From: a virus
Lineage: Duplodnaviria > Heunggongvirae > Uroviricota > Caudoviricetes
Length of the DNA: 9,828 nucleotides
Virus record (IMG/VR): IMGVR_UViG_2537562191_000038
Location: 1 to 9,828 of that record
Direction: 5' to 3' (one strand)
The position numbers were made by a program, and so were the translations under genes. This document shows, in pieces, positions 2,718 to 9,828 of this stretch; position 1 is the first letter of the stretch, and each line of letters starts with the position of its first letter. The notes beneath the pieces are model-generated. The model was not told the DNA's origin and searched no databases. It was given only the letters and a program-made list of their open reading frames with translations.

Positions 2718-2759
2718 TGAACCGCCCCGGGTTTCCTGGAGAGTGTTTTATCTGTGAAC

Positions 2760-3650
2760 TCAGGCTGCCAGATCATCGTTTCCGATGGAAGCATAATAAG
2801 CTTTTTCTGCTTCTGCCGGAGGAGTATGGCCCAGCCTTCCCAGCAATCGTCGATTGTTATACCAGTCCACCCACGTTAGTGTGGCCAGTTCCACTTCTGC
2901 ACGGTTTTTCCAGCTCTTACGGTGTATTACCTCCGCTTTGTAAAGACCATTGATGCTCTCAGCCATCGCGTTGTCATACGAGTCTCCTGTACTCCCTGTT
3001 GATGCCAGTAATCCGGCTTCTTTTAGTCGCTCCGTATAGGCCAGTGACACATACTGAGAGCCTTTATCGCTGTGATGGATGGTGCCAGACGGACGACGGG
3101 CCCACAACGCCTGCTCCAGCGCATCCAGCACGAATGTCGTTTCCATAGACGATGAGACCCGCCACCCCACGATGTATCCGGCAAACACATCAATGATAAA
3201 CGCCACATAGACGAAGCCCTGCCATGTGCTGACGTAAGTAAAATCAGCCACCCACAGCTGGTCAGGTCGTTCTGCCACGAACTGACGGTTTACGCGGTCG
3301 CCTGCGGCAACGGCTTTCCGGCTGATGGTCGTACGGACCTTTTTACCCCGGAGAACACCGGCAAGTCCCATAACCGCCATGAGACGTGCCACTGTACATC
3401 TGGCCACCCTGATTCCTTCCCGTAACAACTGACGCCAGACTTTACGCACACCGTACACCTGATGATTTTCATCGTATACGCGCTGTATCTCTCTCTTCAG
3501 CCAGTCGTCGTGCTGCGCACGGGCACTGCGTTTATCCGGATGATGTCGCTGTTGCTGACAATGGTAATACGTTGACGGGGCAATATGCAGTTCGCTGCAT
3601 ACCGGTCCGACCCCGTACTGCTCACGCAGCTTATCCAGCAGTGGCATCAT
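2760..3650 (-). CDS. IS629 OrfB (DDE integrase-core transposase), 296 aa from the MMPLLDKL start; the same frame is open upstream to an ATG at 3731 in this copy
   Basis: Translation contains a retroviral-integrase-like DDE core (WVADFTYV..., HHSDKGSQY..., ...[14 protein letters not shown]) and is identical to the partial OrfB of copy 2 over the shared portion. The 323-aa ORF in the track (2760-3731) includes a 27-codon upstream extension created by the two homopolymer differences. Confidence 0.85.
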   Translation of the reverse strand: MMPLLDKLREQYGVGPVCSELHIAPSTYYHCQQQRHHPDKRSARAQHDDWLKREIQRVYDENHQVYGVRKVWRQLLREGIRVARCTVARLMAVMGLAGVLRGKKVRTTISRKAVAAGDRVNRQFVAERPDQLWVADFTYVSTWQGFVYVAFIIDVFAGYIVGWRVSSSMETTFVLDALEQALWARRPSGTIHHSDKGSQYVSLAYTERLKEAGLLASTGSTGDSYDNAMAESINGLYKAEVIHRKSWKNRAEVELATLTWVDWYNNRRLLGRLGHTPPAEAEKAYYASIGNDDLAA

Positions 3651-3727
3651 TTTTCCAGAGGCGGTCGAACTCCGCCTTCGCAAAATAAGCGGAAGCCTGG
3701 CGAAGGATATCGTTACTGCGGCGCAGT

Positions 3728-3973
3728 TCACGATTTTTCACGTTCCAGCTCTTTCAGACGCTGACGTTCAGCGCTGGTGAGCCCACCATCACCGCCCCCG
3801 GTATCCCGCTCATGCTGGCGAACCCAGACACGCAGAGTCTCCGGCGTACAGCCAATCTTTGGGGCAATGGAACAAATTGCCGCCCACTGTGAGTCATATT
3901 CATCCTGACTTTCCAGAACCATACGAATCGCCCGCTGACGGACTTCGGGGGAAAAACGAGTATTTTTAGTCAT
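3728..3973 (-). CDS. IS629 OrfA (helix-turn-helix transposase subunit), shortened variant (81 aa instead of 108 aa in copy 2)
   Basis: Identical to copy-2 OrfA up to ...KELERE, then KS-stop. The plus-strand T-run at 3734-3738 has 5 T where copy 2 has 4 A (8995-8998), shifting the frame. Confidence 0.8.
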
Positions 3974-4000
3974 CCTGTTTACCTCTTTCTCAGGGAGTTT

Positions 4001-4027
4001 AGTCTCCAGGATTTCCGGGGCGGTTCA
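4001..4027. repeat. IS629 left terminal inverted repeat (copy 1)
   Basis: Reverse complement reads TGAACCGCCCCGGAAATCCTGGAGACT, matching the right end at 2718-2744 (TGAACCGCCCCGGGTTTCCTGGAGAGT) at about 22 of 27 positions. Confidence 0.8.
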
Positions 4028-4030
4028 GAA
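4028..4030. repeat. 3-bp target-site duplication (GAA), right copy, flanking IS629 copy 1
   Basis: See left copy at 2715-2717. Confidence 0.75.
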
Positions 4031-6818: not shown

Positions 6819-7622
6819 TCATTCCTCCAGAATTTTCGCTTTTACCGTTATGGTGCCGGTGGTTTGCTGCATATAAGCCAGGATAGGAAGTTCCGCCACA
6901 ACGGTGAGGTTCAATCCAACCGCGAACAGCCTGTTGTCGGCGGTGCCGGTGGTCAGATCCTGAAATGCGATTGATTTTTGCCCTTCTATGTAACAGGTAA
7001 CCGGTATCTCATAACCGCCGACATTGGCAATGTGAGTGAAAGATGCCTGCCCGAGGCTGGCATACATTCGTAGCCAGAATGCTAATGCAGTTGTAACCAT
7101 CCCAAGAGATTCCTTCTCGTCACTGGCTATCCATAGCGAATATTCCAGTGAGAAAGGGATAGTAGATACCAGGGCTTCAATCTCATCATTTTCATTGGTG
7201 ACATGCCCTTCATCGTAATTATCCCGGCACAGTTCACCTTCATAAATTGAAAACGCGGGAGAACGAGACAGATTCACAAGCGGCATTGCCAGCTTATTTA
7301 CTGGGCCAGCAGAGGCTGTATCTTTGCGCCCGGCGCGATCGGCTTCAAATGACGACAACCACTCCTTCACATCACTAAAAGTGCCGAGCGTTATGCGATC
7401 TCTTGGTGTGCGTTTCAGGAACTCCCTGAATGACTGGTTAGTGCGATCATTAAAGCTGACAACTTGTGAGTCGAATGCTTCGTTTAAAGCCTGTGCGAGC
7501 GCCGAATCAATGCCATCAATAGTGGCAAATTCCAGCTTACCGGTTGGAGTAAGACCTTTTTTCTTAAAGATGGCCAGTAGCCATTCCTGATTATTCAGAA
7601 TCACCGATGAAATTCCCTTCAA
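6819..7622 (-). CDS. Hypothetical protein, about 261-267 aa, start uncertain
   Basis: ORF in the same operon. Its stop (TGA) is 1 nt before the next ATG. The tracked start is a TTG at 7622 without an obvious ribosome-binding site; an in-frame GTG at 7604 preceded by AAGGGA is an alternative. Either start overlaps the upstream gene. Confidence 0.55.
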
Positions 7623-8319
7623 AGGCGCGTGAAGGCACGCAATAAAACAAACTGCCTACCCTGGCAGTGCCGTAATTGAATATTTTATGGATGTACCAGA
7701 AGCGGCGAATGGTTGTGCCGTCTGACAGCTGTTCCAGCCATTCGAGCATAGAACCCACTGGCACATTAACGGCGGCCAACCGAAGGATTAAAGCACTGTC
7801 GCTAATTCCCGTATTATCACTGCCGTCGTATAGCGCGTAGAAGGCGTCCATCTCATCCGGGCAGTCGAGGGCCGTTATCAGTTCTGGATCCTGATAGTCA
7901 TATATGCGTTGGTTCGGTTCTATTATTTCAGATGCCGTTTCAGGTGCATTTTTGTCTCTGTAAGGTATTGCGCGATACAGAACCGCATCGAATGAGTCAG
8001 GGTCTAGCTTGATTGCTTTGAGCCAGTCCATCCGCACAAGGTTATTAAAAACTGCATGACCTTGATAACGGTGGCGCACACCAGAATCACTAAGCAGGCC
8101 GTGATCCAGATTGGGAAGGTGATTGTCCTCCACAGGATCAACAATATTACCAACGTTAACACCATCGGTTTCGATTTCAGCATCAATATCTTCCTCTTCA
8201 ATCAGTTCAGAACCTTCGCCTGGAATATCCGGATCCGATTCGGTGTCCGGGAGGTTATCACCAGTCACTTGTTGTGATGGTTCTGTGTCCTCAAACATGT
8301 CATCAAAGAAACCAGCCAT
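7591..8319 (-). CDS. Hypothetical protein, 242 aa, with a strongly acidic N-terminal region of about 75 residues
   Basis: ATG at 8319 preceded by AAGGA at 6 nt; separated by 3 nt from the stop of the upstream gene. The first roughly 75 residues contain about 24 Asp/Glu and no Lys/Arg ([53 protein letters not shown]...). Confidence 0.6.
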
Positions 8320-8322
8320 CGA

Positions 8323-8705
8323 TTATCCTTTCCGTTTACGGGCTTCGTTAATTTGTGTCTCAAGAATGCTTCGCGCCTGCGCAGTGGCAGCGGCCTTGTC
8401 CATTCCCTGACTCATGAAAAACTTTATGAGGTTGTTCGCCTGCGTTTGCAGGGCTTTTTTGAGAGCGTCGGCTTCAGCGCGAGCCTGGGCTTCCCTCACC
8501 CGCGATGCTTTTAGTTCGGCATTCTTCCTGTTTGCCGTGGTGCGAGCTTTTTTTAACAACCGGCGAACGTTGTCCGTGGCGCTATCTTTTGCGCGTAGTT
8601 TTTTGCCTAATGCATCCTGAGATTTCAGATACAGCTCATACTCACGCGCAGCTTTAGCCTGATCCGTCGTTGTTGTCCGGTTGCGCGCGAGCGATTTAGC
8701 CAGTT
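8323..8705 (-). pseudogene. 5'-truncated gene for a Lys/Ala/Arg-rich, probably coiled-coil protein (at least 126 C-terminal codons retained); N-terminal part separated or lost by the IS629 copy 2 insertion
   Basis: The reading frame is open on the minus strand from the IS boundary (8705) to the stop at 8323-8325, with no ATG in the first 48 codons (KLAKSLARNRTTTDQAKAAREYELYLKSQDALGKKLRAKDSATDNVRRLLKKARTTANRKNAELKASRVREAQARAEADALKKALQTQANNLIKFFMSQGMDKAAATAQARSILETQINEARKRKG). The 78-aa ORF in the track starts only at an internal TTG. Confidence 0.55.
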
Positions 8706-8759
8706 TGAACCGCCCCGGAAATCCTGGAGACTAAACTCCCTGAGAAAGAGGTAAACAGG

Positions 8760-9086
8760 ATGACTAAAAATACTCGTTTTTCCCCCGAAGTCCGTCAGCG
8801 GGCGATTCGTATGGTTCTGGAAAGTCAGGATGAATATGACTCACAGTGGGCGGCAATTTGTTCCATTGCCCCAAAGATTGGCTGTACGCCGGAGACTCTG
8901 CGTGTCTGGGTTCGCCAGCATGAGCGGGATACCGGGGGCGGTGATGGTGGGCTCACCAGCGCTGAACGTCAGCGTCTGAAAGAGCTGGAACGTGAAAATC
9001 GTGAACTGCGCCGCAGTAACGATATCCTTCGCCAGGCTTCCGCTTATTTTGCGAAGGCGGAGTTCGACCGCCTCTGGAAAAAATGA
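8760..9086 (+). CDS. IS629 OrfA, full length (108 aa)
   Basis: [22 protein letters not shown]...[34 protein letters not shown], with stop TGA at 9084-9086 inside the A6 run and ATGATG region typical of an IS3-family frameshift window. Confidence 0.9.
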
Positions 9087-9828
9087 TGCCACTGCTGGAT
9101 AAGCTGCGTGAGCAGTACGGGGTCGGACCGGTATGCAGCGAACTGCATATTGCCCCGTCAACGTATTACCATTGTCAGCAACAGCGACATCATCCGGATA
9201 AACGCAGTGCCCGTGCGCAGCACGACGACTGGCTGAAGAGAGAGATACAGCGCGTATACGATGAAAATCATCAGGTGTACGGTGTGCGTAAAGTCTGGCG
9301 TCAGTTGTTACGGGAAGGAATCAGGGTGGCCAGATGTACAGTGGCACGTCTCATGGCGGTTATGGGACTTGCCGGTGTTCTCCGGGGTAAAAAGGTCCGT
9401 ACGACCATCAGCCGGAAAGCCGTTGCCGCAGGCGACCGCGTAAACCGTCAGTTCGTGGCAGAACGACCTGACCAGCTGTGGGTGGCTGATTTTACTTACG
9501 TCAGCACATGGCAGGGCTTCGTCTATGTGGCGTTTATCATTGATGTGTTTGCCGGATACATCGTGGGGTGGCGGGTCTCATCGTCTATGGAAACGACATT
9601 CGTGCTGGATGCGCTGGAGCAGGCGTTGTGGGCCCGTCGTCCGTCTGGCACCATCCATCACAGCGATAAAGGCTCTCAGTATGTGTCACTGGCCTATACG
9701 GAGCGACTAAAAGAAGCCGGATTACTGGCATCAACAGGGAGTACAGGCGACTCGTATGACAACGCGATGGCTGAGAGCATCAATGGTCTTTACAAAGCGG
9801 AGGTAATACACCGTAAGAGCTGGAAAAA
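9083..9828 (+). CDS. IS629 OrfB transposase (DDE), 3'-partial at window end
   Basis: Starts ATGATG at 9083 in the -1 frame relative to OrfA. Translation [22 protein letters not shown]... is identical to copy-1 OrfB and is cut by the window edge within ...HRKSWKN. Confidence 0.85.

Follow-up and report, generated by a model that had tools for sequence, protein, structure and literature searches.

Two IS629 copies on one contig

The DNA analyzed here (the window) comprises 9,828 nucleotides, positions 1 to 9,828 of the IMG/VR virus record IMGVR_UViG_2537562191_000038, and holds two copies of the insertion sequence (IS) IS629, each of which lies within a gene of a P1-like phage-plasmid. Copy 1 is complete and spans 1310 bp on the minus strand (2718–4027), with its right inverted repeat (IRR) at 2718 and its left inverted repeat (IRL) at 4027, as delimited by repeats, alignment, and NCBIfam and Pfam matches. 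It interrupts ban, the gene for the DnaB-like replicative helicase of phage P1. Copy 2 lies on the plus strand (8706–9828) within gene 25 of the late tail operon and is represented by its first 1123 bp, which include the IRL, an intact orfA for 108 amino acids, and the first 248 codons of orfB. The two copies are separated by 4678 bp, and their right ends face outward. An exact look-up of the fusion protein formed at the border of ban and copy 1 returned one record, by which the window was identified as the entire 9828-bp draft contig AEZU02000009.1 of assembly GCA_000194335.2, whose proteins are named as Escherichia coli 4.0522. This strain is an O111 isolate from the ileum of a cow in Pennsylvania (PMC11540155).

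In a repeat search, positions 2905–4027 paired with positions 8706–9828 as three adjoining inverted-repeat arms. Since orfA adjoins position 4027 in copy 1 and position 8706 in copy 2, both IRLs point inward. Repeat search, alignment and orfA positions therefore agree on what a first-pass annotation of this DNA had described, namely two IS629-type copies in inverted orientation with their left ends directed at each other. The terminal inverted repeats of copy 1 are 25 nucleotides long and imperfect (2718–2742 and 4003–4027, TGAACC...GGTTCA), matching at 22 of the 25 positions. Its OrfB reached 316 bits with the NCBIfam model for IS3 transposases (cut-off 160 bits) and also matched Pfam rve and HTH_21, while the 108-residue product of orfA in copy 2 matched Pfam HTH_Tnp_1, with orfB overlapping downstream. 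The ALIL frameshift-stimulating pseudoknot (Rfam RF01497, cut-off 50 bits) was detected in both copies, at 3576–3691 on the minus strand in copy 1 (115.7 bits, one A fewer than in copy 2) and at 9041–9157 on the plus strand in copy 2 (121.5 bits).

The combination of a helix-turn-helix orfA, a DDE-type orfB in the −1 frame, the ALIL signal, TG...CA ends and a length of 1310 bp is that of the IS3 family, and the 3-bp target duplication of IS629 was found at copy 1. On these sequence characters, both elements are classified as IS629/IS1203 of the IS3 family. The naming follows copies annotated by the NCBI Prokaryotic Genome Annotation Pipeline (PGAP) and not the ISfinder reference; the copy of the O157 strain FORC_044, annotated as 'IS3-like element IS1203 family', differs from copy 1 at 4 positions in 1310 bp. 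We take IS1203 to be the O111 isoform name of IS629. This high-copy element occurs in most enterohaemorrhagic E. coli (EHEC) O157 strains, is spread widely through EHEC chromosomes, prophages and plasmids, and causes many gene inactivations and deletions (PMC9943667); it transposes by a copy-out-paste-in route via a circular intermediate (bioRxiv 10.1101/2023.06.07.543989).

Sequence differences between the copies

Direct alignment over the common 1123 bp revealed one substitution and two single-A indels, which makes the copies 99.7% alike. The substitution (position 2985 versus 9748) is synonymous in orfB. With regard to the indels, two runs of five A in copy 1 (3650–3654 and 3735–3739) stand against a run of four A (8994–8997, around IS position 290) and a run of six A (9077–9082, around IS position 374) in copy 2, the latter site being located in the orfA/orfB overlap inside the ALIL signal. 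The two indels compensate each other; in copy 1 as recorded, OrfA is frameshifted and ends at 81 amino acids, and neither OrfA nor OrfAB can be made. The double-indel version of copy 1 had no exact match at any of the 23,429 IS places in 5,426 complete E. coli genomes. The corresponding 191-bp frameshift region of copy 2 has 100% matches in complete genomes, with a best match of at least 99% in 1,524 records, and is by these matches the canonical version. Because both indels of copy 1 sit in homopolymers of an early draft assembly, a sequencing error is probably at least as likely as real mutation; or else, copy 1 may be a dead copy. The single substitution indicates that the two copies were assembled separately and do not represent a collapsed consensus.

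These differences bear on the idea that the junction of gene 25 with the IS, or the embedded copy 1, is an artefact of the early draft assembly, with a repeat consensus pasted onto the contig end. The contig does end inside a multi-copy repeat, and the A-run indels of copy 1, in a combination seen at none of the IS places searched, are typical homopolymer errors. Nevertheless, we regard an artefact of this kind as very unlikely: the IS termini and the junctions coincide to the base, with a correct 3-bp duplication at copy 1, the substitution between the copies is at odds with a filling from one consensus, and a misjoin would not be expected to begin precisely at base 1 of the IS.

Insertion of copy 1 into ban

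The IS-free O111:H8 plasmid pSF26_102-2 (NZ_CP077449.1) provided an empty site for copy 1. Where the window reads GAA–IS–GAA, with the left triplet at 2715–2717 and the right triplet at 4028–4030, the plasmid has a single GAA. When the IS and one GAA are removed, ban measures 1365 nucleotides, and its translation is identical to the 454-residue helicase of pSF26_102-2. Because the GAA duplication, the empty site and the identity of the rebuilt gene coincide, copy 1 is proven by alignment to be a simple insertion into codon 422 of ban with duplication of GAA. Thus, the earlier description of copy 1 as a simple insertion with an intact GAA duplication, across which the DnaB frame is restored, could be confirmed.

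Codons 1–421 of ban remain in place at 1454–2717 on the plus strand (supported by translation, Pfam DnaB/DnaB_C and the P1 annotation), and the displaced 3' end with the last 33 codons and the stop codon, recognized from the rebuilt gene, is found at 4028–4131 on the same strand. The reading frame now continues into IS629 and stops at position 2953, which yields a fusion of 499 residues, 421 of them native and 78 encoded by the IS; the last 33 residues of Ban are replaced by the latter. In a collection of 15 billion proteins, this Ban::IS fusion is known from AEZU02000009.1 only. With copy 1 in between, dbn, the gene downstream, is also cut off from ban and from its own predicted promoters, which in P1 are located inside ban. 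According to P1 genetics, host DnaB can substitute for Ban, and the loss of the Ban C-terminus may be tolerated through this substitution.

Insertion of copy 2 into gene 25 and the contig end

The left terminus of copy 2 (TGAACC...) directly adjoins a GTT triplet (8703–8705) within codon 280 of gene 25, a gene of 405 codons, and this triplet would be the target if the element had inserted simply. Of the 1218 nucleotides of gene 25, the 3' 383 remain on the contig (8323–8705, minus strand, from within codon 280 to the stop codon, based on alignment to the intact gene and the P1 annotation). The contig lacks the 5' 835 nucleotides of the gene as well as gene 26 and LP26, the late promoter. The late operon has the order 26-25-7-24-6-5 and is read in P1 from LP26, upstream of gene 26. 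Hence, the first-pass annotation was right that a gene in the convergent operon is cut short by copy 2, but this gene is the second and not the first of that operon. Copy 2 itself stops at IS position 1123, at the contig end. Because the window is the entire contig, this truncation is simply that of a draft contig ending inside a multi-copy repeat and not biology.

We consider it likely that copy 2, too, inserted simply and duplicated GTT, and that a different contig carries what is missing of gene 25. In that case, the right junction would be expected to read CCGGGGCGGTTCA followed by GTTCGCCTTTGAAATAGG, with GTT duplicated. Neither the left junction as seen nor this predicted right junction had a match in IMG/VR.

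The immediate flank of copy 2 resembles that of another IS629 copy. The 34 nucleotides to its left (8672–8705) agree at 25 of 34 positions with the sequence flanking the conserved IS629 copy of O157 in the tnpA gene of ISEc8 (FORC_044 chromosome, record 2501–2534), and this match includes the 10-mer GCGAGCGATT at an equal offset as well as the same GTT triplet. The likeness of the two flanks may reflect a target preference of IS629.

The P1-like backbone

Outside the two IS copies, the sequence is 99–100% identical to plasmids of approximately 100 kb from O111:H8, O26 and other E. coli, including those retrieved in a PLSDB search, and a search of a phage collection gave nucleotide identities of about 98–99% to the phages P1, P7, RCS47 and SJ46. 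Positions 1089–8705 are 98.4% identical to P1 with the same gene order, and from the tRNA onward, synteny with P1, P7 and RCS47 is complete. Because of the nucleotide identity of about 98% and this full synteny, the contig is identified by homology as part of a P1-like phage-plasmid of the genus Punavirus, and the 'ancestral island' assumed previously has to be given up in its favor. The assignment rests on ban, dbn and the late tail operon, the modules for replication, partition and lysogeny falling outside the contig. P1-like phage-plasmids are a recognized and common component of O111:H8 and O26 E. coli strains that produce Shiga toxin (STEC) (bioRxiv 10.64898/2026.09.16.752176).

After removal of copy 1 and one GAA, positions 1–8705 align with pSF26_102-2 over 7392 bases without any change of order or strand, the only mismatch being position 7002, in gene 24. 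In this alignment, the visible backbone is free of inversion, deletion or any other rearrangement, which lends no support to the suggestion that the segment between the copies was rearranged relative to its ancestor. The interior of the IS pair and the left flank are both collinear with the plasmid, and the target duplication of copy 1 is unexchanged. The intact GAA pair around copy 1 therefore implies that no inversion between the copies took place in this assembly. It further implies that copy 1 came in by itself rather than as an arm of a composite unit. Homologous recombination between the inverted copies could turn the 4.7-kb segment around; there is no sign that this has happened.

All gene names were taken from the annotation of the prototype phage P1 (AF234172). 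By this standard, the helicase of the first-pass annotation is Ban, its glycosyltransferase-like gene is dbn, and its 'spike operon' turned out to be the P1 baseplate and tail genes 5, 6, 24, 7 and 25. The gene dbn (4131–5129, plus strand), named by the P1 annotation, possibly encodes a glycosyltransferase according to a weak Pfam Glycos_transf_1 match below the cut-off. On the minus strand follow gene 5 (5176–5808, baseplate, with a weak Phage_base_V match, also below the cut-off), gene 6 (5801–6817, tail length), gene 24 (6819–7604, baseplate or tail stability) and gene 7 (7591–8319, tail stability), all assigned from the P1 annotation. To the left of ban, a tRNA with a CAU anticodon (1098–1173, plus strand; trnI of P1, tRNA-Ile2) was found by ARAGORN and the Rfam tRNA model, in agreement with the P1 annotation.

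Further left, an SPFH/Band 7 domain gene (243–1070, plus strand; Pfam Band_7, E-value 9.7e-31, annotated as SPFH domain protein in relatives) occupies the place of tciA-tciB-tciC in P1 and P7, and homology to these two phages begins only at position 1089. The exchange of tciA-tciB-tciC for the SPFH gene is a module swap common to many E. coli P1-like plasmids. Set against the pSF26_102-2 locus (5990–6001), position 1 of the window comes directly after the T-run GCAGCTTTTTT, which lies between genes upstream of the SPFH gene. This contig break could stem from a repeat insertion, the homopolymer or a gap in coverage.

Occurrence in relatives and mobility of the segment

The left junction of copy 2 and both junctions of copy 1 were looked for in the 5,426 complete E. 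coli genomes, in PLSDB and in IMG/VR, and no record had any of them; the search of the phage collection with the window likewise returned no record with either insertion. Two apparent matches of copy 2 were discarded, as the IS629-like element concerned is located 450 nucleotides away and does not represent the same insertion. Because the junctions are absent from the genomes and from PLSDB, and because the fusion protein occurs on one contig, both insertions appear to be recent, private events of strain 4.0522.

Insertions of the same element at other sites are frequent among the relatives. IS1203/IS629 was found in the dam methyltransferase gene, in icd, between genes 7 and 25, near pmgN, and upstream of the SPFH gene, and according to the annotation tables, each of these insertions has intact backbone on both sides. 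Four strains have gene 25 disrupted, each at a position of its own, and the inserted element is IS629, an IS629-like element or a Mu-like prophage. A look-up of the 78-residue open reading frame left over from gene 25 led to five other contigs, which carry other alleles or disruptions of the gene; the junction of gene 25 with the IS described here was found in none of the five. A breakpoint at position 8705 seemingly shared with NWRM01000028.1, NWQY01000090.1 and NZ_CP061756.1 was rejected, since the window has no gene 25 sequence past this position. When compared to the intact gene, the actual breakpoints are situated 103, 302 and 450 nucleotides beyond the equivalent of 8705.

Fragments of P1 sequence outside an intact P1 context were observed in two other strains, in NWRM01000028.1 (9752–13474) and NWQY01000090.1 (288–4209). 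Both fragments hold only genes 5-6-24-7 and a part of gene 25, and they end inside dbn at the equivalent of position 5085. The fragment in NWRM01000028.1 adjoins hlyC/hlyA and is split by a Mu-like prophage, and that in NWQY01000090.1 is bounded by the right end of an IS629.

Such displaced tail genes could be taken as support for the notion that the inverted pair forms a composite transposon, with the two IRR ends outermost, or an inverting segment that moves the 3' end of ban, dbn and genes 5-6-24-7 together with the rest of gene 25. The geometry would permit it, with inverted copies 4678 bp apart and outward right ends, and IS629 moves as a circle in its copy-out-paste-in cycle (bioRxiv 10.1101/2023.06.07.543989). 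On the other hand, the displaced P1 fragments end elsewhere, at the equivalent of 5085 and 103–302 nucleotides beyond 8705. Copy 1 has its own GAA on both sides, the interior keeps its ancestral order and orientation, and no genome or plasmid searched contains either junction or the module between IS629 copies; the unit was found at no second site in the 5,426 genomes, PLSDB or IMG/VR. Moreover, copy 1 as recorded cannot supply OrfA or OrfAB. The circle junction of an IS3-family element normally joins one IRL and one IRR, which also counts against a unit bounded by two right ends. A composite or inverting unit is, in our view, scarcely credible, and the earlier remark that the segment may be mobilizable, composite or inverting applies generically to any IS pair and found no specific evidence here.

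Interpretation of the two insertions

Two separate, recent IS629 insertions into a P1-like phage-plasmid of the bovine E. coli O111 strain 4.0522 are in our judgment the probable explanation. Copy 1 entered codon 422 of ban by ordinary transposition, duplicating GAA, and copy 2 would likewise have inserted simply, duplicating GTT, the remainder of gene 25 now being on a separate contig. Copy 2 would truncate the gene product gp25 and, by polarity, may sever genes 7, 24, 6 and 5 from LP26. Tail and baseplate assembly would thereby be lost, and the prophage would probably persist as a plasmid only. The inverted pair would be a by-product of two strikes on one replicon and not a functional unit.

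Four points weigh against this explanation as far as copy 2 and its consequences are concerned. First, the contig shows neither the right end of copy 2 nor a second GTT nor the 5' portion of gene 25. Second, in NZ_CP061756.1 (locus positions 4549–6100), an IS629-like element oriented like copy 2 sits in gene 25, and beyond it lie an IS66 tnpB remnant and hsdR instead of the remainder of the gene; this far flank implies that IS-associated rearrangement at gene 25 does happen. Third, 14 predicted products of a right junction between codons 1–279 of gene 25 and the IS had no exact match in the collection of 15 billion proteins. These products spanned 3-bp and 4-bp duplications, alternative starts, and partial proteins abutting IS position 1123. 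The test is weak, as whether an exact match is obtained depends on the start codon chosen, on where the contig stops and on homopolymer errors, and on this contig, the start choices of the gene caller are idiosyncratic and homopolymer errors in the assembly are probable. Fourth, the loss of tail function is predicted from P1 genetics.

A fifteenth predicted product, the bare 279-residue fragment, matched only in a contig of Salmonella. In this 11,117-bp contig of Salmonella enterica serovar Concord, HDO8543647.1 is a partial gp25 of exactly 279 residues that is identical to the O111 allele, and it stops at the codon where copy 2 sits in strain 4.0522. The shared end may be a coincidence, or a repeat may have inserted at the same site in a P1-like plasmid of Salmonella.

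The points concerning the missing side of copy 2 lend themselves to a different explanation, according to which copy 2 marks a rearrangement breakpoint where recombination, an IS-mediated deletion, an inversion or a cointegration with another IS629 has put unrelated DNA in place of gene 26, LP26 and the 5' portion of gene 25. The plasmid of strain 873.10, in which the far side of the IS629-like element in gene 25 consists of the IS66 tnpB remnant and hsdR, offers a precedent. Fragments reaching from gene 5 into gene 25 beside hlyC/hlyA in two other strains, one of them bounded by an IS629 end, would fit as well, and so would the absence of the predicted fusion proteins. In addition, partners for recombination would be at hand, with 37–40 IS629 places countable per O111 chromosome record. 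Against a breakpoint, copy 2 shows a clean IRL terminus in an otherwise perfect gene, the visible side is undisturbed, and, apart from the 873.10 plasmid, the backbone of relatives continues to either side of the other insertions in this neighborhood; the missing-protein test adds little, being weak. Considering both sides, we deem a breakpoint at copy 2 unlikely.

The more far-reaching claim that copy 2 is the scar of an IS629-mediated rearrangement, by which the late tail operon lost its promoter-proximal end or the phage-plasmid became joined to a second replicon, seems improbable to us. If it were true, the IS-bounded block of tail genes would be an intermediate of the kind that seeds P1 tail remnants beside the haemolysin operon in other STEC plasmids.

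Under the explanation by two simple insertions, which we prefer, a known element acts in a known kind of replicon with known behavior, and the case is ordinary. The insertions would serve as private markers of strain 4.0522, with little significance beyond the bookkeeping of strains. They would probably have turned a P1-like prophage into a tail-defective, plasmid-only element, an instance of IS-driven decay of a phage-plasmid with no new mechanism. From a practical perspective, the contig also illustrates that where a repeat is described as 'truncated by the window', the cause may be no more than a draft contig that ends in a repeat.

Comparison with known systems

With composite transposons of the Tn10 and Tn5 type, the contig shares two inverted copies of one IS that bracket a few kilobases. 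It differs from them in that one arm has its own target duplication, a shared outer duplication is missing, and the arrangement has no second occurrence, while the cargo consists of two broken genes and phage structural genes. Closer to copy 2 is plasmid unnamed2 of E. coli O18ac:H14 strain 873.10 (NZ_CP061756.1), where gene 25 is likewise interrupted by an IS629-like element that points the same way. However, that element is inserted 450 nucleotides further into the gene, is only about 96% identical, and the P1 backbone on its far flank has been replaced.

Annotated IS629/IS1203 copies of O157 and O111 agree with the elements described here in the length of 1310 bp, the imperfect repeats of 25 nucleotides, the orfA/orfB arrangement with its ALIL signal, and the 3-bp duplication, whereas copy 1 as recorded deviates by one additional A in orfA and one A less in the A6 run. 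With regard to the backbone, neither insertion is present at these sites in any of the P1-like plasmids searched, several of which carry IS1203 elsewhere. The O111:H8 plasmids pSF26_102-2 and pO111_2 (strain 11128, NC_013370.1) share with the contig the same order of SPFH gene, tRNA, ban, dbn and genes 5-6-24-7-25.

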